A DNA stretch of 63,319 nt, the filler included. It is 5 parts of 5 records of this genome, joined end to end, with 100 filler letters (N's around TTAATTAATTAA, not from the genome) between each part and the next. Parts side by side here need not be neighbours in the genome. Positions count along the whole stretch, not along the records: positions 27,925 to 44,120 come from SRR2962707_3279; 4 more parts are not named here. The stretch is one strand, 5' to 3'. Under the pieces are notes generated by a model. It did not search any database. It saw nothing but the letters and a program-made list of their open reading frames with translations, and had not been told where the DNA came from. The position numbers and the translations under genes were made by a program. Each line of letters starts with the position of its first letter. Within the stretch, counting starts at the first letter, position 1. Of the stretch, positions 1-56,697 are shown one piece after another.

Positions 1-1
1 A

Positions 2-76
2 CCAAAACTTGAAAACGAAAAGCCAACACCAGTGACAGTTAGCTATGACGAGCTAATCAAAGGCTGGCAAAAGTAA
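2..76 (+). CDS. 3' end of a probable sugar/polyol ABC transporter substrate-binding protein (resembles the C-terminus of the glycerol-type GlpV family); partial
   Basis: Manual translation of frame 2 gives PKLENEKPTPVTVSYDELIKGWQK*, followed by a hairpin. Family call is from recall of only 24 aa. Confidence 0.5.
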   Translation, partial: PKLENEKPTPVTVSYDELIKGWQK

Positions 77-104
77 GAACAAGTTATAAGACTTGGTAAT
101 AACG

Positions 105-135
105 AGGCCTATGCGCATAGATTGTGCATAGGCCT
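105..135 (+). terminator. Hairpin/putative terminator after the partial first gene
   Basis: Inverted repeat AGGCCTATGCGCA / TGTGCATAGGCCT; weak U tract. Confidence 0.5.
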
Positions 136-10302: not shown

Positions 10303-10335
10303 TTGTTGAAATGTAAGAATGTATTGGAGAATATT

Positions 10336-27824: not shown

Positions 27825-27924
27825 NNNNNNNNNNNNNNNNNNNNNNNNNNNNNNNNNNNNNNNNNNNNTTAATTAATTAANNNNNNNNNNNNNNNNNNNN
27901 NNNNNNNNNNNNNNNNNNNNNNNN
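27825..27924. other. Artificial contig spacer
   Basis: 44 N + TTAATTAATTAA + 44 N. Confidence 0.99.
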
Positions 27925-28079
27925 ACGTTCGCGGATCCATCCGGCAGCGGAAGTGCCAAGATGATGGCATGAGGTTTGGTGGGTGTGGAAGAAAGTGCTG
28001 GTCGATTCAGATAAACCCATGAAAGCATTGAGCGTACAGCAATGAACTGTGCACAGGCGTGGCTGGGCTGCACGGGCCC

Positions 28080-28222
28080 CAATCTCCGCCCTTGCGGGGG
28101 AGATGTCGGCATCGCCGACAGAGGGGGGTGAGTTGCCGGCTTATTCCAATGGAACGGCGTGTGTGGAACCATACCCCCCTCTGTCACCTATCGTGACATC
28201 TCCCCCGCAAGGGGGGAGATTG
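28080..28222. repeat. REP/RIME-like inverted-repeat doublet
   Basis: About 50-bp arms 28080-28129 and 28173-28222 are near-perfect inverted copies, each with internal hairpins (CTCC(G/C)CCCTTGCGGGGGAG; TGTC..GACA). Confidence 0.88.
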
Positions 28223-28239
28223 CAGCACGTGCAAAGCCC

Positions 28240-28659
28240 TCAATCCTCCGCCACCAACAATCCGGCAGAGCCCTTGGCATATTGCGGCAGACCATCGGTA
28301 ATCTCGTAGAAATCGCCCTTGTCAGCACAAAAGATGTGTTTGGTGAGCGCAAGCTCTGTCGGCTGATCAAACGCCCCTGCCAGCACCGAAATATGCTGGT
28401 CCGCCTGATGCTTCCAGAACAGCGCCGAGCCACAGGTGGTGCAAAAGCCGCGTTTGGCGACATCGGAGGCCTGATACCAGGTGATGTTGTCCCCGCCCTC
28501 GATCTCGATGTTCTCGTCAGGCACATTGGTCGCGGCGAAATAGAGCCCGGACTGACGGCGGCATTGCGAGCAATGGCAGGCAACGACCTCGCGCAAGGGG
28601 CCGGTGGTGCGGAAGCTGACGGCACCGCAATTGCAATGGCCGGTGCGGATGTCTGACAT
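28240..28659 (-). CDS. GFA/CENP-V family protein
   Basis: GHCNCG, CHCSQCRR, RGFCTTCGS. Confidence 0.93.
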   Translation of the reverse strand: MSDIRTGHCNCGAVSFRTTGPLREVVACHCSQCRRQSGLYFAATNVPDENIEIEGGDNITWYQASDVAKRGFCTTCGSALFWKHQADQHISVLAGAFDQPTELALTKHIFCADKGDFYEITDGLPQYAKGSAGLLVAED

Positions 28660-28813
28660 GAGGACTCCAACAGGTACGATTCAGGTTGGAGGCGATCAAA
28701 GCACGGGTGGCGCCTGAAATGCCACTGACATTTGCGACATCGGGTTGACAGAGGAATAAGAAGCTTGAAAGGCGGCCCCCATTCGTTACCTATGGACGTA
28801 GGGAGAATGCACT

Positions 28814-30787
28814 ATGGTTGAGATGTTACCACCGCCACCTGAAGGCGGGCTCAGGGATAAAGTAGGCCTCGATTCTTGGCTTAACAGCCTGCCGGAAAAT
28901 CTAATCAAGCCGGTGGCGCAGCTGATAGCCTGCCGGACTGCTTTGCGGGTGTTGCCCCTTATTCATTTGTCAAACAATGAGAATGAATTCGGAACCATCG
29001 AAGATCGACGACTTGTTTTATCGGCATTGCATACAGCATCTATTTCCTGGGCAGGACTCAGAAATCCCTCGAGAAAAATATACTTAGCCGCCGATTCGGC
29101 AACAGATTTCGCTCCTACCAATGGATATCAATCGACGGACTATGACAGTCTTAGCGACAAACCAGATGCGTTGTTGGGTGCGCTCTCTACAAGCACCGCT
29201 GCGCGAGCGGCTCAATTCGCAACACTTTCGGCTCATGCCGCCGCCTTATCACTTGGTGGTACCAGTAACGCATCCAGCCGCTCTGCTTGCATTTCCGTAA
29301 ATTCTGCCGCGATGTCAGTAGAATCCGCGGTGATTTTCGGTGCTATTTCAAAGAATATCATCTCTCACCACGAATCCTTAATATCTGCCGCCAGATCTAC
29401 AATTTGGGATGCTCTAAACAATGATGCTAGTTTTCTGATCTTGGGCACCAAACCGTTCGAACTTTCAGCGACAAGCCTTTGGCCCGGCGAAAGTCAACCC
29501 GGATGGTGGACCGAAGCAAAAGACAACTTCCAATATGAACTGACGCGCCTAGATCAGCAGTCAAAGCTCAAGAGCAATGAAACAGGCGGCTGGTCTGTCT
29601 GGGTCGAGTGGTATGACGCGATAGCCAAGGGCCAATCCCCATGGCAACTCGAAAAACGTATAGCACTTGGCGATAACCGCGGCGACGAATTTTGGGACCG
29701 CGAGCCAGAAGTAATCAATCGTGAAATTTTGGGGTGGATTGAAGAATTCCGAAGCGGCGCGAATCATTCTGAAGACACAACAGAAAGCGTTGATTTGACA
29801 CAGCGCCCATCTGCTTTCGTATTCAATGCGGATGAAAGCGGCATCTCAGCAAAACCCTTTCAGGAAACGTCTGAAATCGATCCTGTATTGTGCGACGCAC
29901 TGTGGGCTGAAATGCTGGAAAAGCTGAAAAATACCCGTGCTCGGCTGATGGCAACACAAGCGCCCCGCCACGTAGTCGAGAGTTTTGACCGTATCATCCG
30001 CGATTTCGGGGCAAAATTCAGCGATCTTTCGCCCGGTATCTTGCTCTCACGCAGCAGAACCATCGAATCCATCGCCGCGACATACGACTCTCCTGAAACG
30101 CGCAATGAAATGGCGGCAGATGCGCTGGTAATGGTGCAGGACACGGCCACTAGCCTTGCTGATCTTCGCGGCCTGTTTCCCAGCTTGGTAAAAATTGAAG
30201 CGGCCCGTGTTGCCCAAGAAATGGTCAGTTCTGATGCGCCAGCGATTATGCACAATTCCGCTAAAATTATCGACATTGCGCGCGAGTCCGAAATTGTAGA
30301 TCAGAGCGCTGTAGACGCCCTTGAAATGACCATTCCAGAATTTGAGGAATCCCAACGCCTAATCGAAATGGCAGCAAATGACATGGTCCGCGCAGCCGCC
30401 TTGGAAAAACGGGCAGAAATTGTTTCACTACATGTGCTTGATATTCGCAATTTCGGCTCCAGCGTTATCAGTGCCGCAAAGCTAAATAGCTTTCTCAGGG
30501 GAACAAAAAAAGTTAGCGAGAAGGTAGCCGGAGATTTTGGAAGTGACATTTACTCCGGCGTTCGCAGCGGCGTCAAAAAAGTATCCGAAGCAGCAGTTGT
30601 CGGTGGATATTCAGCTCTGGTCGCGACCCTTGTTGATCCCTTCTCTGGCTTGGCCACTTACATTCTTTCGATGCGCTCTCTAGGCACCAAAGCGAGCGAG
30701 ATCAAGCAAGAGCATGAAAACGCCAGCAAAGACCAGAACGTTGAGGCTAGTTCTGACGAGGACGGTAATGATCGGGTCGATGAGTAA
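28814..30787 (+). CDS. Large hypothetical protein (657 aa), lower GC than its flanks
   Basis: Long ORF with GGAGA RBS; RTALRVLP motif, Ala/Ser-rich tract, Trp-rich block (WSVWVEWYD), helical C-terminal half. Confidence 0.8.
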   Translation: MVEMLPPPPEGGLRDKVGLDSWLNSLPENLIKPVAQLIACRTALRVLPLIHLSNNENEFGTIEDRRLVLSALHTASISWAGLRNPSRKIYLAADSATDFAPTNGYQSTDYDSLSDKPDALLGALSTSTAARAAQFATLSAHAAALSLGGTSNASSRSACISVNSAAMSVESAVIFGAISKNIISHHESLISAARSTIWDALNNDASFLILGTKPFELSATSLWPGESQPGWWTEAKDNFQYELTRLDQQSKLKSNETGGWSVWVEWYDAIAKGQSPWQLEKRIALGDNRGDEFWDREPEVINREILGWIEEFRSGANHSEDTTESVDLTQRPSAFVFNADESGISAKPFQETSEIDPVLCDALWAEMLEKLKNTRARLMATQAPRHVVESFDRIIRDFGAKFSDLSPGILLSRSRTIESIAATYDSPETRNEMAADALVMVQDTATSLADLRGLFPSLVKIEAARVAQEMVSSDAPAIMHNSAKIIDIARESEIVDQSAVDALEMTIPEFEESQRLIEMAANDMVRAAALEKRAEIVSLHVLDIRNFGSSVISAAKLNSFLRGTKKVSEKVAGDFGSDIYSGVRSGVKKVSEAAVVGGYSALVATLVDPFSGLATYILSMRSLGTKASEIKQEHENASKDQNVEASSDEDGNDRVDE

Positions 30788-30843
30788 TGCACACTGTCAG
30801 ACCTCCACGAATGGGGAGTTTCGCCGAGTAGTCTCGGTGCTTT

Positions 30844-30993
30844 CCGTCATACCGGACCTCGATCCGGTATCCAGCGGGCGAGCGTCCGCGAGCCGGAAGA
30901 CCGTTTAACTTCCGGGAAATTATTGCTCTGTCAGGAGTCCCTCACCGCGCAGACGCGCGGTGGCTAGATCCCGGATCAGGCCCGGGATGACGG
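30844..30993. repeat. Alphaproteobacterial REP-type palindrome doublet
   Basis: CCGTCATACCGGACCTCGATCCGGTATCCAG (30844-30874) and inverted CTAGATCCCGGATCAGGCCCGGGATGACGG (30964-30993). Confidence 0.85.
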
Positions 30994-31146
30994 TGGCTGG
31001 GATTTTGCGCCACTCTCAGCTTGCCGCAGCTCCGCAAGAAACTCGTCCACATCCAGAGGCCCCGCTTCGCCCGACGCGAGGCCCGCGTCGATAGCGCGGC
31101 GGAGTTCGGCCAATCTTTCTTCGTTTGTCGGATTGGCCGAATTCAT
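30976..31146 (-). CDS. Small ParD-antitoxin C-terminal-like protein, or a remnant of one
   Basis: EERLAELRRAIDAGLASGEAGPLDVDEFLAE; starts 5 nt after the DAHP synthase stop; no RHH N-terminus. Confidence 0.6.
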   Translation of the reverse strand: MNSANPTNEERLAELRRAIDAGLASGEAGPLDVDEFLAELRQAESGAKSQPPSSRA

Positions 31147-31151
31147 CGCAT

Positions 31152-32525
31152 TTACCCGTTCACAACAGCCTTTTCCTCGTCCCGGCCGCCCTTCATGCGT
31201 TCGGCCACGAGGAAGGCGAGTTCCAGGGCCTGGTCGGCGTTGAGACGCGGATCGCAGTGGGTGTGGTAGCGGTCCTGCAGGTCTTCGCCCGAGAGCGCGC
31301 GGGCACCGCCGGTGCATTCGGTGACGTTCTTGCCGGTCATCTCGATGTGGATGCCGCCCGGGTGGGTGCCTTCGGCACGGTGGATCTGGAAGAAGGAATC
31401 CACTTCCGACAGGATCCGCTCGAACGGACGGGTCTTGTAGTTGTTGAGCGTGATCGTGTTGCCGTGCATCGGATCGCACGACCACACCACCTTGCGGCCT
31501 TCGCGCTCGACGGCGCGGATCAGCTTGGGAAGGTGATCGGCCACCTTGTCGTGACCGAAACGGGCGATCAGGGTCAACCGGCCGGCTTCGTTGGCCGGGT
31601 TGAGGACGTCAATCAGATTGAGCAATTCATCCGGCTCCAGCGACGGGCCGCATTTGAGACCGATCGGGTTCTTGATGCCGCGGGCATATTCGACATGGGC
31701 ATGGTCGGTCTGCCGTGTCCGGTCGCCGATCCAGATCATGTGGCCCGACGTGGCGTAGAAATCGCCCGAGGTGGAATCGTTGCGGGTCATGGCTTCTTCA
31801 TAGCCAAGCAGCAAGGCTTCGTGGCTGGTGAAGAAATCGGTCTCGCGCAGATTGGAGTGGTTGTCGGCGGTAATACCGATCGCCTTCATGAAATCCATGG
31901 TCTCGGAAATCCGGTCGGCGAGCTTGCGGTAGCGCTCGGCCTGGGGTGAGTCCTTGACGAAGCCGAGCATCCACTGGTGCACATTGTCGAGATTGGCGTA
32001 ACCGCCCTGCGCGAACGCACGCAGCAGGTTGAGCGTTGCCGCCGACTGCCGGTAGGCCATGATCTGGCGTTCCGGATCGGGAATGCGCGACTTCTCGTTG
32101 AACTCGATGCCGTTGATGATGTCACCACGGTAGCTCGGAAGCTCGATGCCGTCCTTCTTCTCGATGTTGGACGAGCGCGGCTTGGCGAACTGACCGGCAA
32201 TACGGCCGATCTTGACCACCGGCTGCTGTGCGCCAAAGGTCAGAACCACGGCCATCTGCAGGAACACGCGGAAGAAATCGCGGATGTTGTCGGCTTCGTG
32301 CTCGGCGAAGCTCTCGGCGCAATCGCCACCCTGAAGCAGAAAGCCCCTGCCTTCGGCGACTTCGGCAAGCGCCGAGGTCAGCCGGCGGGCCTCACCCGCA
32401 AACACCAGGGGGGGAAACTTGGCCAGCCGGGCCTCGGTCACTTTCAGTGCCTCTGCATCCGGATAATCCGGGACCTGCTGGATCGGTTTGTTGCGCCAGC
32501 TTGATGGGGTCCAGTTCTGTGCCAT
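31152..32525 (-). CDS. Class II DAHP synthase
   Basis: [41 protein letters not shown]. Confidence 0.97.
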
Positions 32526-32665
32526 GTCGTTCACCGTGGTTGTCGGGCTCATGCCCGGCTGTTTTGCGGGCAACATGCCCGCGGATCGATCAATTTCACC
32601 GGGCTTATAGCGGGAGATTGAGCGGCTGCAAACCCGGCAATGCGAATCAAACCTGCCCTGATGGC

Positions 32666-33391
32666 TCAGACAGAGGCGCCGCGGCCAAGCACAACATCAA
32701 ACAGCTCCACTTCTTCAGGCGACAGAGAGACCGCGCGCGGGTAGAGCGGCTGAGCCCGGTCCTCGTGGATCGGGGTGTGAAACGCATCGGTCTCCAGGAC
32801 GAACCGGTGCAGGCCATCCGGCCCGAATTCGCGCAAAAACCCCTGCATCACTGCATCGAGATAGGACCTGAGGATCGGCGCCGGGCCATCAGCCGCCGGA
32901 TGCTCGACCCGTGCCTCATAGACATGCAGGGTGATGTCCGCGCCAAGTCCGTGGCCGGGGTCGGTGAACTCCAGATCGGCAAGCACGATGTCGCGGCGGT
33001 GATAGCGAAACTCGCGGGTATCGACCCCGGCAAGATTGACGGCGAAATCGATCACCAGCAGCCCGTCGATGGAGGCGCCCTCGGCCCGATGCGCCGTGAG
33101 CAGCGACGGCGCGATACCGTCAGGCAGCGTGACACCCGGTGTAGCGCCCATATCAGGTCTGGGCCGCCATGTGCGGCGCCAGCCTTTCAACCGCGCCCGG
33201 TGGGCTTCGACATGGCCGGTGGTCAAAGTGGCGCGGTTGACCAGCGAGCCATAGCCGAAATAGCCGACAAGCTCTCCCGGCCCGTAACGCACCGCTTCAT
33301 CGCAGGCTGCGGCCTGCAACGGCACGGCACTGCCGGGCTCGTTCACAGCCATTCCGGCAAGCACTGGCATCTCGATCTTGGACATCATCAC
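32666..33391 (-). CDS. Gamma-glutamylcyclotransferase-like protein
   Basis: YFGYGSLVN motif, D.RE..Y; start uncertain. Confidence 0.75.
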
Positions 33392-33452
33392 CTCACCTTC
33401 CTACATTAAGAGATAGTGAGCGAACACGAAACCGCCAAACCGGGACAGACCC

Positions 33453-34823
33453 ATGACCTCCATATCAGACCGCATTGCAGCCCTTCGGGCCAGTTTCGAC
33501 AGCCGGAAAACCCGGCCTGAGAAATGGCGGCGCGAGCAGCTCTACCGGCTGATGACCATGATCGAGGAAAACGAGAGCGCCATTGAAGAGGCGCTGCGCG
33601 CTGATCTGGGAAAATCAGGCTTTGAAGCGCGCATGACCGAGACCGGCACGGTGCTGTCGGAGATCGAGCACACGCTGTCAAAGCTAAAAGGCTGGATGCG
33701 GCCCAAAAAGGTTTCCACTCCCTTGTCGAACCAGCCCGGCCGCAGCAAGGTGGTTCATGAGCCGCTGGGCGTGGTGCTGATCGTGGCGCCGTGGAATTAT
33801 CCGGTCAATCTGACGCTGATGCCGCTGATCGGAGCAATTGCTGCCGGCAACTGCGCCGCGATCAAGCCCTCGGAAGTCTCCGCCCGGACCTCCGAGCTGC
33901 TTGCCCGGCTGATCCCCGCCTATCTCGACACCGATGCGTTCGAAGTATTCGAAGGCGGCGCCGACATCTCGACCGAACTGCTCGAACAGCGCTTCGATCA
34001 CATCTTCTTCACCGGCAGCGAAGGCATCGGCCGCATCGTGATGACGGCGGCGGCAAAGCACCTGACCCCGGTGACGCTGGAACTGGGGGGCAAAAGCCCC
34101 TGCATCATCGCCGCCGACAGCGATCTGGCGCTTGCCGCCCGGCGGGTGGCCTGGGGCAAGTTCCTCAATGCCGGACAGACCTGCATCGCGCCGGATTACG
34201 TGATGGTTGACGAAACCGTAGCACACGAGTTCATCAAGGAGATGAAAACAGCGATCACGGCGTTTTTCGGTACCGATCCGAAGGCGAGCCCGGATTATCC
34301 GCGACTGATCAACCAGCGCCATTTCGACCGCTTCGCGGAGCTGATGAGCGGCGGAACCATTGTCACAGGTGGCGAGACAGACCGCGAGACCAGGTATATT
34401 GCCCCGACGATATTGACCGATGTGAACCCCGACGCAGCGGTGATGCGCGAGGAGATCTTCGGCCCGGTGCTGCCGGTCATGACCTATGCGGCGCTCGATG
34501 ACGCGATCCATTTCATCACCTCACGGCCCAAGCCGCTGGCGCTCTATGTCTTTGCCAAATCCGGCGACATCCAGGATGAGGTGATCGCCCGGACCAGCTC
34601 CGGCGGCGCCTGCATCAACGATGTGGTGATGCATCTGGCTGTTCCCGACCTGCCCTTCGGCGGCGTCGGCACCAGCGGAATGGGCGCCTATCACGGCCGC
34701 GCCTCCTTCGACACATTCAGCCATGCCAGGGCGGTGTTGACCAAGAGCGAGCATCTTGACGTTCCGCTGCGCTATCCGCCCTATTCGGCCACCAAGTTGC
34801 GCTGGCTCAAACGGTTTCAATAA
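33453..34823 (+). CDS. Aldehyde dehydrogenase (ALDH3/CalB-like)
   Basis: PWNYP, FTGS, LELGGKSP, NAGQTCIAPDY, EEIFGP. Confidence 0.96.
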   Translation: MTSISDRIAALRASFDSRKTRPEKWRREQLYRLMTMIEENESAIEEALRADLGKSGFEARMTETGTVLSEIEHTLSKLKGWMRPKKVSTPLSNQPGRSKVVHEPLGVVLIVAPWNYPVNLTLMPLIGAIAAGNCAAIKPSEVSARTSELLARLIPAYLDTDAFEVFEGGADISTELLEQRFDHIFFTGSEGIGRIVMTAAAKHLTPVTLELGGKSPCIIAADSDLALAARRVAWGKFLNAGQTCIAPDYVMVDETVAHEFIKEMKTAITAFFGTDPKASPDYPRLINQRHFDRFAELMSGGTIVTGGETDRETRYIAPTILTDVNPDAAVMREEIFGPVLPVMTYAALDDAIHFITSRPKPLALYVFAKSGDIQDEVIARTSSGGACINDVVMHLAVPDLPFGGVGTSGMGAYHGRASFDTFSHARAVLTKSEHLDVPLRYPPYSATKLRWLKRFQ

Positions 34824-34935
34824 CCCGGGCAGCGTTCCTAATGCGTTTTGCGGCCCACATTTTGATGCATATCAAGGCGAAACATTGCACCAGCACTATG
34901 AATGGAACATAGAACCGATCAGCGGAGAGCATTCC

Positions 34936-35559
34936 ATGTCCCAGTCATCCTATTCCAACACCACCGAAGCCGTCGGCATTTTTCACACATCCAGCGATCT
35001 GCAGGCGGCGATCGACGACCTGCTGACCCAGGGTTTCGACCGCATGGATCTGAGCATTCTGGCCTCGGAGAAAGCCATCGAGGACAAGCTGCATGAGGCT
35101 TATGTCCCGGCCCGCGATCTCGAGGACCGCGTCGAGGTTCCCACCACTGCCTTCGTCTCCACCGAATCCATCGGTGACGCCATGGGCGCCGTCATCGGCG
35201 TTCTGGTCTATGTGCCGGCGATGATCGGTGCTGCAGCCGTCGTCGCCTCCGGCGGCGCGCTGGCCGCTGCCGTCACCGCCGCGCTGATTGCAGGTGGTGT
35301 CGGCGGATCGATCGGCACCGTCATGGCTGGCCTGATCGGCACCGCCCAGGCACAGGAGATCGAAAATCACCTGCTGGCTGGCGGCCTTCTGCTCTGGGTC
35401 CGCACCCGGGACAAGAGCCACGAGGAACGCGCACTTGGCATCCTCAAGGGCCACAATGCCGACGGCGTTCACCTGCACACCCTGCCCTCGCTGGTTGGCA
35501 GCGGCACCTCCAAGCCGACGGAAGATGTTGTGGACGTGACCAGCGCAAGTTCCGAATGA
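34936..35559 (+). CDS. Hypothetical membrane protein (general-stress-protein-like, Gly/Ala-rich TM hairpin)
   Basis: AVGIF...LQAAIDDL..QGF, hydrophobic core, GGLLLWV. Confidence 0.75.
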   Translation: MSQSSYSNTTEAVGIFHTSSDLQAAIDDLLTQGFDRMDLSILASEKAIEDKLHEAYVPARDLEDRVEVPTTAFVSTESIGDAMGAVIGVLVYVPAMIGAAAVVASGGALAAAVTAALIAGGVGGSIGTVMAGLIGTAQAQEIENHLLAGGLLLWVRTRDKSHEERALGILKGHNADGVHLHTLPSLVGSGTSKPTEDVVDVTSASSE

Positions 35560-35586
35560 GACAGACCAGTACTGCACGGAAACAAG

Positions 35587-36027
35587 ATGACAGACCCGAT
35601 CCATATCACCTGCCCCGCCTGCCAGGCCAAGAACCGGATACCGGCGGCCAAGCTCGCGGCCAAACCCACCTGCGGCGCCTGCAAGGCGCCGCTGTTTGCC
35701 GATGCCCCGTTCGAGCTTGACGAGGCAAAGCTCAACAAGCACCTGAAGAACGACGACATTCCGTTGCTGGTCGACTTCTGGGCGCCCTGGTGCGGCCCGT
35801 GCCGGATGATGGCGCCGATGTTCGCCGAGGCCTCAAAGCAGATGTCGCCGCAGGTGCGCTTTGCCAAACTCGACACCGAACAGAACCAGGCTGTCGGAAA
35901 CCGTTTCCAGATCCGCGGCATTCCGCTGATCATCCTGTTTGACAAGGGCAAGGAAGTGGCGCGCCAGGCCGGCGCCATGGATGCCCGCGGCATTGTCAGC
36001 TGGGTGCGCCAGCATGTGAAGGCCTAG
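35587..36027 (+). CDS. trxC: Thioredoxin 2
   Basis: Two N-terminal CxxC zinc motifs plus WCGPC. Confidence 0.95.
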   Translation: MTDPIHITCPACQAKNRIPAAKLAAKPTCGACKAPLFADAPFELDEAKLNKHLKNDDIPLLVDFWAPWCGPCRMMAPMFAEASKQMSPQVRFAKLDTEQNQAVGNRFQIRGIPLIILFDKGKEVARQAGAMDARGIVSWVRQHVKA

Positions 36028-36302
36028 CTTCAGGATCATCCCGAAGCCGTCTAGCGAGGGGCGTGAAGGCTCTTTTGGCAGAGCCGCGGCTGGCAAGTTG
36101 CGGCGGCAAATGCGACCCATTGCCTGTGGTTGATGAAGCCAGCCCGCGCCGTTCCAAGCGGTGTGCATCATCTTGTTCAACTCATCGACGAGCGTTTGCT
36201 GAATGCGCTATCGCGGCCTTTGGCATTGACCCAACGGATTTCCGTCCAGGCAGATGATCCTCTCGGAGACATGAAAGTGTGCCGTCTTCATCGGCATCTC
36301 AT

Positions 36303-37103
36303 CTAACCCTTGAATTCTGTCTGCAACCCCGGCCGCGACCCCAATCCCATTGACGCATCCAGAACTGCGCCATGCATGACGCGCGACGCAGGCGTCGCCA
36401 GAAAATGCACCACGGCGGCGATGTCAGCCGGTTCGATCAGGCGGCTCTTGGGCAGGTTGGCGCAAAACCTTGCGCGTTCCTCAGGAGTAAGCTTGTTCAG
36501 CGTGCTGGCCTGGAACATCGGCGTGTCGGTCGCCCCCGGACAGATCGCAAAGACATCGACATCCTTGTGCGTGGTCTCGGCCGCCAATTGACGGGTCAAG
36601 AAGGCCACGGCTGCCTTGCTCATGCCATCGGACAGCCGGAACCCCGGAAATGCGGTAATGCCGCCCCCGACAGAGCTGATGTTGATCAGCTTGCGGTTTG
36701 TGCCTTCTGGCAGCGACAGGAATTCCTGGCACATTTTCAGCGTGCCATCTGCATTGATGGTCATCATCAAGCTGTCCTGTTCGGCAGCGTCATCAGACAA
36801 GGCGGCGACTGTGGCCGAGCCGACCGCGGCATTGTTCAACAGAATATCAATTCTACCGTGTTCAGCGATCACGCTGGCAAAGCACCGGCGGATTGATGCG
36901 TGGCTGCGCAGATCAAGCGGGTGGGCCGTCACATTCAACGGCCCAAAACTGTCCAGCGCCACTGCGCGGTCTTCGACGTTTTCCACATAGGTGAAGGCAA
37001 CCGTTGCGCCATATTGTGCCAAACGTTCCACACAGGCTCGCCCAATGCCGCCCGTGCCGCCGGTCACAAGAACAATCCGGCCGCTCAGATCGAAAGGCGC
37101 CAT
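36303..37103 (-). CDS. SDR family oxidoreductase (atypical active site)
   Basis: TGGTGGIG, NNAA, NISS, CPG.TDT; the YxxxK position reads DGMSK. Confidence 0.88.
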   Translation of the reverse strand: MAPFDLSGRIVLVTGGTGGIGRACVERLAQYGATVAFTYVENVEDRAVALDSFGPLNVTAHPLDLRSHASIRRCFASVIAEHGRIDILLNNAAVGSATVAALSDDAAEQDSLMMTINADGTLKMCQEFLSLPEGTNRKLINISSVGGGITAFPGFRLSDGMSKAAVAFLTRQLAAETTHKDVDVFAICPGATDTPMFQASTLNKLTPEERARFCANLPKSRLIEPADIAAVVHFLATPASRVMHGAVLDASMGLGSRPGLQTEFKG

Positions 37104-37394
37104 CAGGTCAGCAAGTGTCACTCGAAAATTCCTTTTGGTCTTCTGGGATAACGCCACGCGGCGCGAACCGCGCTTATGCGCTTTATGGCACTAAATTCGG
37201 AGCAGGCAAAAAACTATGCGGGCCGTGCCAGCAGAATATGGTTCACCATTTTGTCGCAAGATCCTGTCTTGTGGAAAAGTGTGCCCCAGTCGAGATATCG
37301 AAGTCAGCGCCTGAATAGATGATGCCAGATGTTGATCTGGAAGCGGAAGCCTGCTGCGCGCCCCTCAAGCCGACCCTTCGAGCTTGCGGCCTCT

Positions 37395-37532
37395 TTCCGT
37401 AAAAGCAGCCGTTCGTCCCAATTTGTCCGCAAGCGCAGAAATGGCCGAAAGCACCAATGGGTTTTTGGTCAGTCTGGGCGGGGAGCTGACATTCGCTGTC
37501 GCTCAATAGAAGGGCTAGTGTGTCCGCTTTCG
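37395..37532. repeat. Degenerate intergenic repeat element, copy A
   Basis: GGCCGAAAGCACCAA at 37443-37457 is identical to 39578-39592, with similarity continuing about 70 nt; inverted CGAACGGCTGC nearby. Confidence 0.65.
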
Positions 37533-37539
37533 TCGTCCG

Positions 37540-37571
37540 ACTGTCGCAAAAACGATCCCTTTTGCAACAGT
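37540..37571. repeat. Short inverted repeat resembling abutted IS terminal repeats (scar) or a hairpin
   Basis: ACTGTCGCAAAA-N8-TTTTGCAACAGT, 11/12 complementary. Confidence 0.45.
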
Positions 37572-37652
37572 TACAGAGAGTCAATTATGCGACAATGAAC
37601 AGCAACTGGTTGTGTCGCTGAGTTAGCCACGTCCCCCCCGAATTCAGCGGCG

Positions 37653-38414
37653 TTAGCGTTGCGGATAATTTCCACCGTTGTTGATGCACCATGTCGTGCC
37701 GGGCGTGGCTGAGGCGAGGTCAGGCACGTTAAAGCTGCCTGTACCGTCCCCTCGACTATTGCCGCCATATCTGTTGCCCAAAAGCGACCAAAGTTTTTGG
37801 TTTTCCAACGCAATCAAGGCACTGCCATCCGCGAGAACAGCCGATGGCGTCAAACAGCCATCCCCCGAACCCAATTGCATTTCGCCACTGTAAGAATCTG
37901 AGTCGTCACCGGCATATCCGTTCTCCAATGCTTTGCACCATATAATGCTGTTTTGATGCGGAAGGGCTGCGTCGGTTTGGACTTCCCAGCCCGAGGGACA
38001 ATAGTCAGAAACGAAAGCAACGATTTCACCAGGCCTTCTTCCATCGGGTCGCCCGCCGCCATCAGGTTTGGCAGGATAAACGCCATTAGTGATGACGCAC
38101 CACCGCATCGAGCCACTTTCACGAAGATCGGGCAAAAGAGATTCGACAACACCACCACCGTAATCAGCGCGGCCGAACCTTCCTCCAATGAGATTTTCGA
38201 GGAAATCATTTTGTACAGGTTGACCATTGGCTTCAACTGTGTCCCGTCGGCAATAATCTGCCGCTGTCAAGACAATCGTGCCTGCCCATTCTTCTGCCTG
38301 TGATTCAGACAGTGCAAATCCGGCAAGGCCGGACCCGGTTACCAGTGACGCAATAACCAGAATGCCCAGCCCGCGCGCCAGTTTGCCTAACCGTCCTGAA
38401 TAAAAAATGTACAT
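37653..38414 (-). CDS. Secreted protein with phage tail-collar-like repeats
   Basis: Signal-peptide-like N-terminus; DGS......NQKLWSLLGNRYGG...G..SFNVPDL collar motif plus two degenerate copies. Confidence 0.75.
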   Translation of the reverse strand: MYIFYSGRLGKLARGLGILVIASLVTGSGLAGFALSESQAEEWAGTIVLTAADYCRRDTVEANGQPVQNDFLENLIGGRFGRADYGGGVVESLLPDLRESGSMRWCVITNGVYPAKPDGGGRPDGRRPGEIVAFVSDYCPSGWEVQTDAALPHQNSIIWCKALENGYAGDDSDSYSGEMQLGSGDGCLTPSAVLADGSALIALENQKLWSLLGNRYGGNSRGDGTGSFNVPDLASATPGTTWCINNGGNYPQR

Positions 38415-38734
38415 GATAAATGTCTTTTCGCATGGTTGCAGAAGTCTCCAGGCAAGCCAGTTTAACCCGGGAAATAGGAAAGAACGCTAACAGAGATGCC
38501 GAATCTTAGCGACCTCGATCCTTCACGCGTACAGACTAAAAACCGGGATTTTGCCCCTCAATATTGCGGCAAGGTTTTGCGACACCAAAGCCGTTGAAAT
38601 AGCCGGGCGCGGAAAACCGTTGCAAAATCCGCAAAACGGAATTGGATATCCAGACATCCAAATTAGTGCTAGCACCGGTTCAGGCACGCCAGTTTTGGTA
38701 GAGCTGGGGATTACCCACAAAGGGATTTGCTTTC

Positions 38735-39175
38735 ATGAATTTTACCACAGGCCTTAAACGCACCAGCATCTACGCCGCAACAGTTGTGCTCTCATTCGCC
38801 GCAACAACCGCTAACGCAGCCTGCTCGGACCCAGCTGCACCGGGGGTTAATTGGATGGAGTGCGACAAGACTGGCGTGAACCTGAGCGGCGAGAACCTGA
38901 GCGGCGTGAACCTGAGCGGCGCGGACCTCGGCGGCGTGGACCTGGAAGGCGCGGACCTTTACGGCGCGGACCTGACCGGCGCGTACCTGGGCGACGCGGA
39001 CCTGACCGGCGCGTACCTGGTCGACGCGGACCTGACCGACGCGTACCTGGGCGACGCGTACCTGGGCGGCGCGGACCTCGGCGGCGCGGACCTGAGCAAC
39101 GCGGACCTGACCGGTGCGACGTGGTCGGACGACCGGATATGCCAAAAGGGTTCCATAGGTTATTGCAATTATTAG
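38735..39175 (+). CDS. Secreted pentapeptide-repeat protein
   Basis: Signal peptide ANA|A, Cys-pair caps, 16 x (G/D)A(D/Y)Lx repeats. Confidence 0.92.
38873..39112 (+). repeat. 16 x 15-nt tandem repeat (pentapeptide coding)
   Basis: Units such as GGCGCGGACCTGACC. Confidence 0.92.
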
Positions 39176-39459
39176 AGTTGGCCTGATGAACGGGCCGTGA
39201 TGGATAGCTCAAGCTTGAGACATCTGCGCCCTAAATAGCCGCGCCCGCCCTCCAATCGGGAAGGCGGGACGAGCGCCATGTATGACTCCGGCAAATGCCG
39301 GTTGTCTTACGCTTTCTGATCCCTGCGTCCAAGTTGGCCCCGCCCCAACCATTGATTCAAAACAGCGACGCGCCAGTGTGTGTCCTGTAATGATGCGCAT
39401 GAACATTGGCCGAGTGAGAAAGCCCGCCAATATTCGGGCCGTTTCAGCAGCGCAGCGGA

Positions 39460-39665
39460 TTGGTGCTTTGGCCGCACAGACCCACGTTTCAGTCCACAAA
39501 ATGCCGCGCTCTGCACGAGTGGCCGCTTAGGCGGGCCGCACCGCAGCATTTTGAGGTGGTGGCCAATGGCGGCAAAGGGCCGAAAGCACCAAAGGCGACT
39601 TGGTAACCTTGGGAGGAGCGGTCCTTCGCTGCGGTTTCCACGAATGGCTGCATTGCGGACTTTGC
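39460..39665. repeat. Degenerate intergenic repeat element, copy B (composite)
   Basis: Inverted TTGGTGCTTTGGCC 39460-39473; 39516-39586 aligns with 41500-41570; 39578-39664 aligns with 37443-37532. Confidence 0.65.
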
Positions 39666-39924
39666 CACAGTCGTCTAGCTTCAGATTTGGGGAAGAAGGT
39701 GTTTACGAATCCAGGGGCTATTCAGGTGTCCATTTCATGCAATAACGGACACGTCATAGGCCAGTGCGCAAGTTGTCCCTGGCTGGTTTTATTTGAAATT
39801 GGATAATATAGGCCCTCGTCTGAGTTTGCTGTTTGCTCCTATATGATTAGGACAGGAGCAGATATATTCGTCATCAATTTTAAGCATCTGCGGAATGCAG
39901 GATATTTTGGAATTTTGGAGAAGA

Positions 39925-40698
39925 ATGATGTTTTCATCAAAACGTAGGCTGGTGTCGTGCGCGATGGCTTTGGGGTTGTCGTTGTCAGTGAATGTAGGTT
40001 TTGTAGCTCCCTCGCTCGGGCAGAGCTCAGATACGCCTCCGGTCTTGCAACCAAAGTTCACCGCCACCTGCACAGATACAGACACAGCTATCCTGACCAA
40101 AGCCCATGGCAACATGGCCAAGATGCTCGATGATGCATTGGATGGCGTGACGTCGGAAACCTCGAGCATCGAGTATACGGAAAGCTTCGGCGCATCGGAC
40201 TTCGGGCGTGACTTCACAGTTCTGGCCCGTCTCCTGCTTCTTCGCATAGGTGCCGCAACCGTCGAGATGACCGCCAATTGTGTGCCCGCAGGCGTTGATG
40301 CCATATGCGATGCCGGAACCTGGGCCTATGTTTCAAAGCAGCAGCTTGGGGCTGCAGACAACAAATATAACATCAATTTCTGCAGGAGCTTTTTCGACGC
40401 GACTGACGAAAATGTGCAGGCGATTTCCATGTGGAAAAAAGCCTCCGTCATGCAGGGGGCTGTATTCCTGCATGAGCTCACGCATTTCTCATGGGCAACA
40501 AAGTCCCTGCTCAGGGAAGTGGGAATGGAACCTGATGACAGCGCCCAGGACCAGGCCGGTTCCAAGGACGTCGAATACGATGCCGAGGGCGTAAAATATC
40601 TCGCCGGCACCGATCCGGAGCAAGCCATTCTCAACGCGGACAGCTACCATATTTTCATCATGAGACTGGCTGTCCGCAAAGGCCTGATCTACAACTGA
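39925..40698 (+). CDS. Secreted M35 (aspzincin / Lys-specific) metalloendopeptidase
   Basis: Signal peptide; INFCRSFF, LHELTH (HExxH), GSKDVEY (GTxDxxY equivalent), NADSY. Confidence 0.87.
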   Translation: MMFSSKRRLVSCAMALGLSLSVNVGFVAPSLGQSSDTPPVLQPKFTATCTDTDTAILTKAHGNMAKMLDDALDGVTSETSSIEYTESFGASDFGRDFTVLARLLLLRIGAATVEMTANCVPAGVDAICDAGTWAYVSKQQLGAADNKYNINFCRSFFDATDENVQAISMWKKASVMQGAVFLHELTHFSWATKSLLREVGMEPDDSAQDQAGSKDVEYDAEGVKYLAGTDPEQAILNADSYHIFIMRLAVRKGLIYN

Positions 40699-40764
40699 TC
40701 CGGCAGCGATTTGCGGGCGTTCAATGCCCGTGCTGCCTTCTTCCGCACAAAGGACATCAAGCTC

Positions 40765-41475
40765 ATGTCGATGAAGTCCAGCAGGATTGCCGTCGCCCTT
40801 TTTGGCCTCCTGATTTCGACGTTCTGGCACAACGCCGACGCGATGGCCTGTTCATGCAGGCCATCGCCGAAGGAGAAGATTGTCGCGTCAAGTGACATCG
40901 TCGTGGTGGGGCGGGTGCTGGATGTCCGTGTAGACGGCGAGCTGAGGCGCGCGCGCGTTGAAGTCGAGCAGACGATAAAGGGCACTATCCCTCCCCGCCA
41001 GATCCTGGAACTCGTCACCCAACTCGACAGCGCCCAGTGCGGCTATGACTTCAAGGTCAGTGACGAACCGATCACCATAGCGGCGGACCGGCAAGATGCG
41101 GGCGAACTGCTCGTCCACAATTGCAAGATGTACAGCCTGAAGACGGCGGACAGACGCATGAATGCCGCCAAGAAGGCATTGCAAGCCGAACCGAAGGTCA
41201 CAACTGCCTCGTGCATGGCGCAAAACCTGACCGGAAAGGCCTCCTGCGAAGCCATATGTCCGACCGGACGCGCCGTACTTAACTGCACACACAATGCCGG
41301 CAAGCTGAGTTCGGGCGACACATGCAGCGCATTGGCGCAGGTTTTCGCCGGTTCCACGGATGAAAACGGCCAGCCCGCTCCTCAACCCCATGATCGATGC
41401 AGCGTATCTGCCACGTGTTCGGATGACCAGCAGACCTTGTCTGCACAAGCCTGGGCAAGCTGCGCCAGACCTTAG
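40765..41475 (+). CDS. Secreted TIMP/NTR-like protein with Cys-rich C-terminal domain
   Basis: Signal peptide AMA|CSC; SDIVVVG.V, IKG, T..DSAQCGY.F, G.L....C; 8-Cys C-terminal module. Confidence 0.78.
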   Translation: MSMKSSRIAVALFGLLISTFWHNADAMACSCRPSPKEKIVASSDIVVVGRVLDVRVDGELRRARVEVEQTIKGTIPPRQILELVTQLDSAQCGYDFKVSDEPITIAADRQDAGELLVHNCKMYSLKTADRRMNAAKKALQAEPKVTTASCMAQNLTGKASCEAICPTGRAVLNCTHNAGKLSSGDTCSALAQVFAGSTDENGQPAPQPHDRCSVSATCSDDQQTLSAQAWASCARP

Positions 41476-41499
41476 TGTCTGGGTATCATCTGGCGCCGT

Positions 41500-41661
41500 C
41501 GAATGGCGGCAATGCGGCAGTTGCGGCGCAGCATTTGACAAGATCATCGAGGTCCGCAATGGGCCGATTGTTTCGGTCCGCCTCGGATGCGCACATGACA
41601 TCGCTCCCACGCAGGTTCCCAGGAGCAGGTAGTCCCCTGGCGGCCCCATTTCAGCCATTCG
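41500..41661. repeat. Degenerate intergenic repeat element, copy C
   Basis: CGAATGGCGGC...CGCAGCATTT...CGCAATGGGCCG plus inverted CGGCCCCATTTCAGCCATTCG at 41641-41661. Confidence 0.6.
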
Positions 41662-41906
41662 ATCAACGCCGCTACAGGTATCGCCCAGCCAATTGGTTCA
41701 CCACCGCAAAACCATGAATCAGTGCATTGCAATTTCATCGCAAGCCATTGAAACCGCGACGTAATATCCACCATCCAGAAACGGCCTCCCGGCCCCACCT
41801 ACTCGATCCCTGCTCCGGCGATCCAAAACCTTGCGCAGCGCACCTGCCCCCTCACCGCCGCCTCGAAGTCCGGGTCTTGTGCGTCATCTCGTTGTTGATC
41901 AACCCA

Positions 41907-41922
41907 TTGACGTGAACGTAAA
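41907..41922 (+). promoter_or_regulatory. LiuR-like (MerR family) operator overlapping a TTGACG -35
   Basis: TTGACGTGAACGTAAA versus recalled LiuR consensus TTTACGTWWACGTAAA; 43 nt upstream of the hydrolase ATG. Confidence 0.6.
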
Positions 41923-41965
41923 CGTTATTCAGATTGGCTCCGTGCGAAGCAGGAGGCGATTTGCC

Positions 41966-42856
41966 ATGCAGTCAGGTTCCAGTCCATCAGCGGCTCGGTC
42001 AGTCCATGTCGAAACCATCCTGTTCGACACCGAAGACGGCCACCCGATAGAGGGCACGTTGACGACAGGGGCTGGCTGCGGCCCGCTTGCGCTGATCTCC
42101 TCGGCCACCGCCGTCAAGCGCGGATTTTATCAGAAATTCGCCGAGAGCCTGATTGCCCGGCACGGATTCCGCGCAGCCCTCACCTATGATTACCGCGGCA
42201 CCGGCGGATCGCTCAGCGACTGGTTCAATCCACGCCATATCTCGATGGCTGACTGGGGCATGAAGGACTTTCCCGCGGCCCTTGCCCGGCTCAAACAGGT
42301 TGCCCCCGGCCACCCTGTGGTCGGCGTTGGCCAGTCCTATGGCGGACAGGCGCTCGGGCTGGGCAATGTCTCTCAGCGGTTCGCACGCTATCTGATGGTG
42401 GCAACGATCTCGGGCTACTGGCGCAATCTGGGTGGCGGCCCGAAACTCTATGCCATGATGAATTTTGTCGCCAATCCGATAGCAATCGTGCTGGGGCGCG
42501 TGCCCGAAGGCCTCGGCCTGGGAGCGGGACTGCCCGGCGGGGTGTTTCGCGACTGGACCAGATGGTGCTCGAAACCGGATTACTTCTTCTCAGAACCCCG
42601 GTTTGACGCCACCAGCCTGTTTGCCTCGGTGGAAACCCCGATCCTGGCCATCGGCGCCACCGATGATCCGTGGGGCACGCCCGCGGCGCGCGATGCCATC
42701 ATGCGCCATTTCGTCAATGCACCGGTGGAAACCAGATGGCTCGATCCGCAAACAGCCGGCGGCCCGATCGGCCATCTCGATTTCTTCCGCTCGCGCTTTC
42801 GCGACACGCTCTGGCCCGGCCCTGCCGCCTGGCTGAAAGGCGAAGCCGACGCCTGA
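41966..42856 (+). CDS. Alpha/beta hydrolase
   Basis: YDYRGTG, GQSYGG nucleophile elbow, DD.W, GH..FF; AGGAGG RBS. Confidence 0.9.
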   Translation: MQSGSSPSAARSVHVETILFDTEDGHPIEGTLTTGAGCGPLALISSATAVKRGFYQKFAESLIARHGFRAALTYDYRGTGGSLSDWFNPRHISMADWGMKDFPAALARLKQVAPGHPVVGVGQSYGGQALGLGNVSQRFARYLMVATISGYWRNLGGGPKLYAMMNFVANPIAIVLGRVPEGLGLGAGLPGGVFRDWTRWCSKPDYFFSEPRFDATSLFASVETPILAIGATDDPWGTPAARDAIMRHFVNAPVETRWLDPQTAGGPIGHLDFFRSRFRDTLWPGPAAWLKGEADA

Positions 42857-42859
42857 GAC

Positions 42860-44119
42860 TCAGACCCGCTCGCCGCCCTTGACCCGGTAGCTCGGGGTGT
42901 ACATCGTCACCAGCTCTTCAGACGCAGTCGGATGCACCGCCATGGTGCGGTCGAAATCATCCTTGGTGCAGCCGGCCTTCAAGACGATGCCGAGGATCTG
43001 CGCCATTTCACCGGCCTCGTGGCCGAGAATGTGGACGCCGATCACCTTGCGGTCAGCAGCATTGACGACGATCTTCATGATGGTCTTTTCGCTCCGGCCC
43101 GACAATGTCGCCTTCATCGGGCGGAATTCGGCGCGGTAGATTTCCAGCTCGTCATAGGTCTTCGACGCCTCGTCTTCCGACAGGCCGACCGTGCCGATTT
43201 CGGGCTGCGAGAACACGGCCGTTGCAATCAGGTCATGATCCGGAGACGTTGGCCGGTCATGGTAGAGCGTGTCGATCAGGCACATGGCTTCGTGGATTGC
43301 CACCGGGGTCAGCTGCACCCGGTCGGTGACATCGCCCACCGCATAGATGCTTTCGACATTGGTGCGCGAATACTCGTTGATCAGGATCTCGCCCTTGTGG
43401 CCGGTCTTCACACCCGCCTTGTCCAGTCCGAGGCCTTCGGTGTTGGGATCACGGCCAAGCGCCAGCATCACCTGATCGGCGACAAGCGCCTTGCCGGCTG
43501 ACGTGTGCGCCAGCAACCGGCCATCGGGCCCGCGTTCTATTTTCTCGAAGACTTCGTGGCATAGAATGCGGATGCCCTTCTCTTCCATCGCGGCATGCAG
43601 CCCGCGGCGCATGTCCTGGTCAAACCGCGACAGGATCTCCTTGCCGCGGTAAATCAGCGTGGTGTCTACACCCAGACCATGAAAGATATTGGCGAATTCG
43701 ACAGCGATATAGCCGCCACCGGCGATCAGGATCGCCTTGGGCAGCTCGGCAAGGTGAAAGGCTTCATTGGAACTGATGCACAGCTCATGACCCGGCAGTG
43801 CGGCATGCGGGTTGGCACGCCCGCCGACGGCGACGAGAATGTGCCGTGCAGTGACTTCCTGCCCGGTCGCCTTGATCAGCACCGAATTGGGGCCGGTGAG
43901 CTCGGCGCGCGAGGCGATGATCTCGGCACCGGCATTTTCCAGCCCGCGCCGGTAAAGCCCTTCCAGCCGGTCGATCTCGCGATCCTTGTTGGCAATCAGC
44001 GTCGGCCAGTCGAACGAACTCTCGCCGACACTCCAGCCGTAGCCGTGCGCATCTTCGAAATGCTCGGAGAATTGCGAGGCGTAGACGAAGAGCTTTTTCG
44101 GCACGCAGCCGCGAATGAC
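42860..44119 (-). CDS. gor: Glutathione-disulfide reductase, 5' partial
   Basis: VIRGCVPKK, GGGYIAVEFA, LTPVAI, HPTASEE. Confidence 0.95.
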   Translation of the reverse strand, partial: VIRGCVPKKLFVYASQFSEHFEDAHGYGWSVGESSFDWPTLIANKDREIDRLEGLYRRGLENAGAEIIASRAELTGPNSVLIKATGQEVTARHILVAVGGRANPHAALPGHELCISSNEAFHLAELPKAILIAGGGYIAVEFANIFHGLGVDTTLIYRGKEILSRFDQDMRRGLHAAMEEKGIRILCHEVFEKIERGPDGRLLAHTSAGKALVADQVMLALGRDPNTEGLGLDKAGVKTGHKGEILINEYSRTNVESIYAVGDVTDRVQLTPVAIHEAMCLIDTLYHDRPTSPDHDLIATAVFSQPEIGTVGLSEDEASKTYDELEIYRAEFRPMKATLSGRSEKTIMKIVVNAADRKVIGVHILGHEAGEMAQILGIVLKAGCTKDDFDRTMAVHPTASEELVTMYTPSYRVKGGERV

Positions 44120-44120
44120 G

Positions 44121-44220
44121 NNNNNNNNNNNNNNNNNNNNNNNNNNNNNNNNNNNNNNNNNNNNTTAATTAATTAANNNNNNNNNNNNNNNNNNNNNNNN
44201 NNNNNNNNNNNNNNNNNNNN
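44121..44220. other. Artificial contig spacer
   Basis: 44 N + TTAATTAATTAA + 44 N. Confidence 0.99.
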
Positions 44221-56597: not shown

Positions 56598-56697
56598 NNN
56601 NNNNNNNNNNNNNNNNNNNNNNNNNNNNNNNNNNNNNNNNNTTAATTAATTAANNNNNNNNNNNNNNNNNNNNNNNNNNNNNNNNNNNNNNNNNNNN
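56598..56697. other. Artificial contig spacer
   Basis: 44 N + TTAATTAATTAA + 44 N. Confidence 0.99.

Follow-up and report, generated by a model that had tools for sequence, protein, structure and literature searches.

Two neighbouring genes of an uncultured bacterium, one for an exported metallopeptidase of family M35 (P0001) and one for an exported two-domain protein related to the animal tissue inhibitors of metalloproteinases, or TIMPs (P0002), lie on the piece at 27925-44120 of the window, by which is meant the whole stretch of 63,319 nucleotides analysed here. The genes are co-oriented and the gap between them measures exactly 66 nt, as an initial annotation of this DNA had stated; a consensus scan of this spacer found no terminator-like site in it. 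The membership of both proteins in their families is beyond chance, and so is the agreement of their motifs, because Pfam assigns each protein above its cut-off: the protease to PF14521 Aspzincin_M35 (E 3.4e-12, 47.4 bits, cut-off 30) and the N-domain of its neighbour to PF00965 TIMP (E 1.7e-5, 25.1 bits, cut-off 23.1; residues 28-124 on profile positions 2-111). We consider it fairly probable that the second protein is a cognate TIMP-type inhibitor of the first, a protease without a prodomain, and that the two are encoded in one operon.

The protease carries the aspzincin motifs HELTH, GSKDVEY and NADSY at the places where they had been noted before. An alignment of 26 M35 sequences of 21-96% identity shows no variation at His183, Glu184, His187, Asp215, Tyr218, Asn237 and Asp239, and because the catalytic and zinc-binding residues are held constant in this way the catalytic equipment looks intact, as far as an alignment can tell. 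The sole sequence match of the protein in the PDB is the peptidyl-Lys metalloendopeptidase 1g12 (E 0.016, over the GxxDxxY...NAD region), in which NADNH aligns with NADSY; we take this NAD motif, with Asp239, to contribute to the S1' pocket. The N-terminus reads as a signal peptide, in which KRR is followed by a hydrophobic stretch and then by SLG|Q, so placed that cleavage would fall before Gln33, and M35 homologues have A-x-A|Q at the position aligned with SLG|Q. The possibility that the protease is a lipoprotein, raised by LVSC at residues 9-12, was ruled out, as this Cys is not conserved and its place in the signal peptide is too early.

The clade of close M35 relatives is rare, with 8 members among 5.8 billion proteins, and consists of short proteins (237-263 aa; HExxH at 176-190), whereas in the phylum of G001 ten proteobacterial M35 genes from other genomes have products of 353-424 aa in which HExxH stands at 303-374. 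On this comparison of sequences the window protein, at 257 aa, is without the N-terminal extension of ~200 residues that is typical of proteobacterial M35 enzymes, which bears out the earlier remark that a long propeptide is missing. The long N-terminal extension of such M35 enzymes is presumably an inhibitory prodomain. A plasmid collection held two distant M35 genes (28-29% identity) and no match for the TIMP-like protein, and NCBIfam offered no family for either.

The TIMP-like protein begins with a predicted signal peptide, MSMKSSRIAVALFGLLISTFWHNADAMA, after which come Cys29-Ser30-Cys31, with the codon for Cys29 at 40849, and then, in the order known from TIMPs, SDIVV, IKG, TQLDSAQCGY and GELLVHNC. 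Its N-domain has four Cys, at 29, 31, 92 and 120. These features had all been described in the initial annotation and were found as described; what that annotation called a TIMP-like protein is, however, TIMP-like in its N-domain, and a second domain with eight Cys (residues 145-236) had been overlooked. The sequence A-M-A|C fits signal peptidase I and not a lipobox, and 130 of 138 relatives have A-x-A, V-x-A or S-x-A in the same place, so that signal peptidase I would be expected to cut after Ala28 and leave Cys29 as a free N-terminus. Lipidation of Cys29 was ruled out, since A-M-A-C mismatches the lipobox pattern, which is [LVI][ASTVI][GAS]C, and the family consensus is A-x-A. By analogy with TIMPs, disulfides would be expected between Cys29 and Cys92 and between Cys31 and Cys120. 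A sequence search of the PDB with this protein gave only a chance-level match (E 0.98), and close two-domain relatives are even rarer than the M35 clade, numbering 6 among 5.8 billion proteins.

An AlphaFold2 model of the TIMP-like protein based on a 90-sequence alignment reached a pLDDT of 93.5 and superseded a first, poor model based on 7 sequences (pLDDT 63.7). Foldseek returned 20 PDB matches at E <= 0.001, and the matches listed at ranks 1-13 and 15 are all TIMP-1, -2 or -3; the best was 3ma2_C (E 9.2e-6, TMt 0.69), TIMP-1 (1uea_B) superposed with a root-mean-square deviation (rmsd) of 2.2 over 100 columns at 22% identity, and below the TIMPs came meteorin NTR, agrin NtA, complement C345C and PCOLCE. 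VIA-align, a structure search of 48161 chains that is independent of Foldseek, placed N-TIMP-3 at the top (3cki_B; Z 12.0, rmsd 2.5, 94 aligned, model 29..135 on chain 1..111) and gave Z 9.8 for TIMP-1 (1uea_B; rmsd 2.0, 97 aligned, model 29..132 on chain 1..109), Z 10.0 for meteorin NTR and Z 6.1-6.7 for the silver- and copper-binding SilF and SilB. In the model the N-domain is thus an OB-type NTR/TIMP fold with TIMPs as its best matches, an outcome in line with what the initial annotation had expected of such a comparison. Because the alignments run from model residue 29 to chain residue 1, the predicted mature Cys29 superposes on Cys1 of the TIMPs.

It is clear that the N-domain belongs to a wider bacterial family. 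A profile search among 1.84 billion cluster representatives returned 1010 proteins at E <= 0.001, and members outside the clade in which the two domains are fused are mostly of 120-130 aa, made up of a signal peptide and the N-domain. Cys-x-Cys stands within the first 80 residues in 137 of the 138 representatives listed outside the fused clade; it is preceded by A-x-A in 111, V-x-A in 11, S-x-A in 8 and another sequence in 7, and between its two Cys stands Ser in 105, Lys in 18 and Thr in 5. Across a 78-sequence alignment of the family Cys29, Cys92 and Cys120 are invariant, Cys31, Gly49, Lys72, Gly73 and Gly93 are at least 90% conserved, and the ridge residues S-A-x-C-G are conserved; 39 of these 78 members match Pfam TIMP at E <= 0.01 (best 3.8e-10), 6 match NtA and 5 match NTR. 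One member, P0035 (201 aa, 14 Cys), covers positions 1-164 of the 183 in the Pfam TIMP profile, reaching into the C-terminal TIMP domain. Where the family occurs in multi-domain proteins, the TIMP-like domain comes first (10 of the 10 checked) and its opening Cys-x-Cys lies within the first 30 residues, with SLH repeats behind it in P0040, P0064 and P0086 and CarboxypepD_reg domains in P0057, P0115 and P0151. Because the domain comes first in these proteins, right behind the cleavage motif, its constant position directly after an A-x-A site fits what a mechanism that needs a free alpha-amino group predicts. Our search of the literature on bacterial TIMP homologues found no study of this family.

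The second domain of the window protein (residues 145-236) is all-beta, contains 8 further Cys and is connected with the N-domain through a helix. It is a module in its own right, which stands alone in L009, P0021, P0022 and P0024-P0026 and behind other N-terminal parts in P0008, P0023 and P0027, and it has no family in Pfam. With VIA-align, residues 142-236 matched the C-terminal domain of PCSK9 (Z 6.5 and 6.1) and the APC-beta domain of apicomplexan perforin (Z 5.4-6.0), although matches at such Z may reflect only a common arrangement. A protein atlas search with the C-domain gave unnamed clusters, at a best score of 0.87, and no named relative; one atlas row at 0.83, in which PCSK9_C families occur in 10% of members, is a lead only. 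A scan of genome contigs returned solely the stand-alone gene of L009 (9836-10279), which encodes the domain as a small exported protein amid housekeeping-type genes of a Rhodospirillales metagenome-assembled genome, and M35 gave no match in that genome. We infer that the C-domain is a targeting or anchoring module. Residues 121-149 (41125-41211), a stretch wider than the linker itself, hold 5 Lys in 29 residues, and the linker is Lys-rich in six of nine fused homologues (P0002, P0004-P0006, P0017 and P0019; 29 to 59 residues, 17-24% Lys vs 3-8% in the rest of the protein), among them both lineages in which the gene adjoins M35. The linkers of P0007 (3%), P0018 (9%) and P0020 (0%) are not Lys-rich.

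Table 1. Features of the protease and TIMP-like genes and their surroundings, in window coordinates
Feature	Position	Strand	Remarks
Tail-collar-domain protein gene	37653-38414	-	signal-peptide-like N-terminus; upstream of the pair
Pentapeptide-repeat protein gene	38735-39175	+	signal-peptide-like N-terminus; upstream of the pair
M35 metallopeptidase gene (P0001)	39925-40698	+	257 aa, exported; open reading frame, translation, Pfam PF14521 at residues 78-244
M35 predicted Sec signal peptide	39925-40020	+	residues 1-32; read from sequence
M35 alternative start ATG	39928	+	6 nt downstream of GGAG
HELTH	40471-40485	+	residues 183-187; zinc-binding His183 and His187, catalytic Glu184; invariant in 26 M35 sequences
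GSKDVEY, aspzincin motif	40558-40578	+	residues 212-218; third zinc ligand Asp215, Tyr218; both invariant, n=26
NADSY	40633-40647	+	residues 237-241; Asn237 and Asp239 conserved; presumed S1' pocket region
Spacer, 66 nt	40699-40764	+	AAGGA 9 nt upstream of the TIMP-like ATG
TIMP-like two-domain protein gene (P0002)	40765-41475	+	236 aa, exported
TIMP-like predicted Sec signal peptide	40765-40848	+	residues 1-28, ending in A-M-A
TIMP/NTR-fold N-domain	40849-41139	+	residues 29-125; Cys29-Ser30-Cys31 start, SAQC92GY loop, Cys120
Helical interdomain linker	41140-41196	+	residues 126-144; secondary structure of the model
C-terminal all-beta 8-Cys domain	41197-41472	+	residues 145-236
Terminator-like hairpin 3' of the TIMP-like gene	41551-41565	+	consensus scan only

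The mature protease (33-257) and the mature TIMP-like protein (29-236) were modelled as a complex together with a zinc ion, by ESMFold2 and without use of alignments. The ipSAE values were 0.81, 0.86 and 0.86, against 0.00 for the best of three controls, with a contact agreement among runs of at least 89% and a partner pLDDT of at least 81; in calibration 51 of 78 solved complexes attained the ipSAE mark, as did 2 of 108 mismatched pairs and 7 of 44 blind-drawn neighbouring genes. On the inhibitor side the interface is formed by residues 29-34, 86, 88-92, 116 and 118-121, with scattered single residues, and on the protease side by residues 126-138, 180, 183-184, 187, 212-219 and 238-239, and the C-domain lies outside it. 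The tightest pairs of Ser30 are with protease residues 132-135, 180, 183, 184, 238 and 239, and those of inhibitor residues 89-92 with 135, 136, 187, 214 and 215. In the model this is the TIMP mode, with the N-terminal strand and the loop tied to it in the HExxH cleft and residue 2 directed toward S1', so that the Cys1 wedge is predicted to sit where the initial annotation had proposed to look for it. The prediction supports binding between the M35 protease and the TIMP-like protein.

Linkage of the two genes was followed across genomes. A scan of metagenome contigs with the M35 alignment found eight loci (L001-L008), of which L001 has the arrangement of the window, at 96% and 92% identity, and comes from the same lineage. 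A second lineage is given by L006, where an M35 gene of 48% identity (1201-1935, +) is found with a gene for a TIMP-like protein with C-domain of 44% identity (3363-4097, -), and two paralogous genes for Cys-rich exported proteins lie between them. L005 is the same sequence as L006 and ends too early to be informative, and too little downstream sequence is available in L003, L007 and L008. The pair is thus present in two of the four informative lineages of the M35 clade and, because both close clades are very rare, a pair that recurs at 44-48% identity is hard to ascribe to chance. In 396 genomes of the class of G001 a profile of the M35 clade gave 4 weak matches, to the C-terminal motif only, and no further pair. 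The Pfam TIMP model had 0 matches in 401 genomes of the phylum of G001, where its controls were also silent, the model being too animal-specific for such use.

Two side observations were made among these loci. In the more distant M35 sub-clade, genes for small exported proteins of two recurring families without a Pfam match stand on either side of the protease gene, one family upstream of M35 and the other, Cys-rich and duplicated in L006, downstream, and neither is found in the window (L006 394-939, 1996-2520 and 2737-3261; L007 169-558; L008 4-150 and 949-1242). At L036 an exported matrixin of 680 aa with thrombospondin type 3 repeats (Peptidase_M10 E 1e-11, HELGHGLGLSH) is encoded at 8665-10707, and its gene shares 8 nt with the end of the one before it (7872-8672), which encodes an OB-like exported protein with a weak match to the TIMP-like profile. 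As a second pair of protease and TIMP-like protein L036 was ruled out, the OB-like protein beside the matrixin being without Cys-x-Cys.

A number of results weigh against a dedicated inhibitor. At L006 the pair runs convergently, with 1.4 kb in between, and so is not one operon there. The M35 gene of L002 has no TIMP-like gene in the 5 kb downstream of it, and that of L004 has none within 2.4 kb on each side, where housekeeping genes lie; because of these two loci it can be said that a prodomain-less M35 protease can exist without a TIMP-like partner. Among 401 genomes of the phylum of G001 the family profile matched 16 (one through the C-domain only, and several weakly) and PF14521 matched 17, and both families occur in only G242 and G278, on different contigs or 1.4 Mb apart. 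M35 was found within 8 kb of none of the 16 TIMP-like loci, whose neighbours are mostly housekeeping genes. The partner is thus not obligatory for the M35 clade, and linkage is narrow, with none at the level of the family. A canonical N-TIMP has 6 Cys, and a canonical two-domain TIMP 12; the window protein, from a bacterium, has four N-domain Cys and not six. To our knowledge TIMPs inhibit metzincins, not aspzincins. The score of the predicted complex is the model's own confidence, and the docking mode may have been remembered from solved complexes of TIMPs with metzincins; an M35 aspzincin is not a metzincin, and we know of no solved complex of a TIMP with an aspzincin. The complex run also included zinc, unlike the calibration set. 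Of the co-occurrence that the initial annotation anticipated, the second lineage is borne out, while L002, L004 and the family at large go against it; its cognate protease-inhibitor pair draws support from fold, motif, complex model and that same second lineage, with linkage confined to a narrow clade.

The piece that carries the pair opens with housekeeping genes (class-II DAHP synthase, aldehyde dehydrogenase, thioredoxin 2 and short-chain dehydrogenase), after which comes a run of four genes with signal-peptide-like N-termini that ends in the M35 and TIMP-like genes. Downstream of the pair are an alpha/beta hydrolase gene and then a glutathione-reductase-like gene truncated by the end of the piece. 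The GC fraction is 0.55-0.58 over 36-42 kb vs ~0.62 on both flanks. Pfam scans of the other genes on the piece found no secretion-system, rhs, vgrG or mobile-element families, a promoter scan found 0 sigma-70-like sites in 39100-41900, and a tRNA scan found no tRNA genes in the window. The five pieces of the window are separated by spacers at 15812-15911, 27825-27924, 44121-44220 and 56598-56697, each consisting of two runs of 44 N that flank 12 bases reading as stops. The piece at 1-15811 may come from another replicon or a mis-binned contig, because its GC of 0.46-0.51 differs from the 0.54-0.65 of the other pieces.

If the TIMP-like protein is a cognate inhibitor, both proteins would enter the periplasm via Sec, signal peptidase I would expose Cys29 as a free N-terminus, and the oxidising periplasm would form the disulfides Cys29-Cys92 and Cys31-Cys120, by analogy with TIMPs. 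A wedge made up of Cys29-Ser30-Cys31-Arg-Pro-Ser and the loop Leu88-Asp-Ser-Ala-Gln-Cys92 would then fill the M35 cleft over the zinc held by His183, His187 and Asp215, with Ser30 toward the S1' region (residues 238-239), and the blocked cleft would hold a protease that has no prodomain in latency, either in the periplasm or once released. The purpose might be latency during export, self-protection or timed release. Should the protease prefer Lys at P1', it could also, by way of speculation, cut the linker of its inhibitor, as in the Mtz-Tim pair of Listeria considered below. A broader version, in which TIMP-type inhibition by a free-Cys1 wedge is no animal invention but widespread in bacteria and acts here on an M35 protease that has given up its prodomain, and in which cutting of the linker may provide a self-resetting latency switch tethered by the C-domain, seems to us unlikely.

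Other explanations of the pair have to be weighed against cognate inhibition. The two proteins could be neighbours without direct interaction, thrown together in a small cluster of genes for exported proteins, the TIMP-like protein inhibiting foreign metalloproteases (of a competitor, predator or host) or other metalloproteases of its own cell. The family-wide survey speaks for this, with M35 within 8 kb at 0 of 16 loci and mostly housekeeping neighbours, as do the M35 relatives without a TIMP-like gene at L002 and L004 and the fact that the two upstream genes, for the tail-collar and pentapeptide-repeat proteins, likewise encode signal-peptide-like N-termini. Yet two very rare families lie within 2.2 kb of one another in two lineages that share 48% and 44% identity, and the complex scored 0.86 vs 0.00 for controls, at a mark that blind-drawn neighbours reach in 7 of 44 cases, and we hold independence of the two proteins to be unlikely. 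It is less probable again that the protease, instead of being inhibited by the TIMP-like protein, processes it as a substrate or partner, cutting a Lys-rich linker and so releasing the N-domain from the C-terminal module. Such a linker is present in six of nine fused homologues, both M35-adjoining lineages included, M35 enzymes include peptidyl-Lys endopeptidases, of which 1g12 is the sole PDB sequence match, and there is a precedent in the cleavage and release of Tim by Mtz, described in the available part of PMC8235301. The predicted interface, however, is the N-terminal wedge and not the linker, and the linkers of P0007, P0018 and P0020 are not Lys-rich; processing is also compatible with inhibition and hence not strictly exclusive of it.

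The variant of the initial annotation in which the pair is an effector with its immunity protein fares poorly. Here the protease would be an exported antibacterial or anti-eukaryotic weapon from which the TIMP-like protein protects the producer, a picture to which the adjacency and common orientation of the genes, the predicted block of the active site and the lowered GC of the region (0.55-0.58 vs 0.62 on the flanks) would be suited. Both proteins carry Sec signal peptides, however, no secretion-system, rhs, vgrG or mobile-element family was found by Pfam among the other genes of the piece, and M35 relatives exist without the partner. We found nothing that supports this variant specifically and regard it as very unlikely, and it differs from cognate inhibition in purpose only. 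Least probable of all, in our estimation, is that the N-domain is a non-inhibitory NTR module for binding or metal handling, in which Cys-x-Cys serves for disulfides only. The NTR modules of agrin NtA, complement C345C and PCOLCE are not inhibitors, and they too match the model structurally; NtA and NTR matches in Pfam occur in 6 and 5 of 78 family members, and SilF and SilB match at Z 6.1-6.7. TIMPs nevertheless rank above the other NTR modules, the S-A-x-C-G residues of the ridge show conservation, and the domain is always N-terminal behind A-x-A, a feature that TIMPs need for chelation of zinc.

The window presents a bacterial relative of TIMPs that is detectable by sequence and keeps the feature on which TIMP inhibition depends, in a family of ~1000 clusters, and it offers that family a natural candidate for its target in the adjacent gene, backed by a strong complex prediction, which brings the function of the family at large within reach of a test with two small recombinant proteins. 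If cognate inhibition is correct, TIMP-type inhibition would extend beyond the metzincins, and there would be a bearing on the origin of the TIMP fold.

Parallels with known systems are instructive. Like animal TIMP-1 to TIMP-4, which we take to be MEROPS family I35 (PF00965), the N-domain has a Pfam PF00965 match above the cut-off, an OB/NTR fold aligned from residue 1, Cys-x-Cys at the predicted mature N-terminus, a small residue 2, a loop Cys in S-x-x-C-G-Y and, as predicted here, a wedge in the zinc site. Unlike them it has no C-terminal TIMP domain, as the Pfam match stops at position 111 of 183 and an unrelated beta domain with 8 Cys follows, and its predicted target is an M35 aspzincin and not a metzincin. 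The origin of the TIMP family has been placed in the eumetazoans, in the part of PMC10755359 that was available, and two papers on TIMP evolution (PMC9409782, PMC4860685) have bacteria only in their reference lists. Bacterial and fungal M35 peptidases with a prodomain, as represented by 1g12, share with the window enzyme HExxH, an Asp ligand of the GTxDxxYG type and a conserved NAD motif, and differ from its clade, which is of ~250 aa, in their long N-terminal extension. AsaP1 is presumably a bacterial M35 peptidase of this kind, with a prodomain.

The serralysins with their periplasmic inhibitors (AprA/AprI, Inh) resemble the window in having an operon for a metalloprotease and an exported inhibitor that inserts its N-terminus into the active site. 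Their inhibitors, which we assume to be MEROPS I38, are a different beta-barrel without Cys-x-Cys, with no sequence relation seen, and they act on a metzincin that leaves the cell through a type I system. The alkaline protease inhibitor engages its metzincin much as TIMPs do, according to the part of PMC8235301 at our disposal. The nearest bacterial precedent of the window pair is the Mtz-Tim pair of Listeria monocytogenes (PMC8235301, as far as available), in which a gene for a secreted zinc metalloprotease is likewise followed, with no gene in between, by one for a TIMP-like exported protein, in pairs that relatives have conserved. Mtz is a metzincin, whereas the window protease belongs to M35, and Tim is a lipoprotein (lipobox LTAC) that is TIMP-like by fold prediction only, whereas the window partner is not a lipoprotein and is TIMP-like by sequence (PMC8235301, same portion). 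What that portion reports is that Mtz cleaves Tim ~50 residues in and so releases it, rather than that Tim inhibits Mtz, and in the window the candidate inhibitor would meet its protease through the N-terminal wedge by which animal TIMPs engage theirs.

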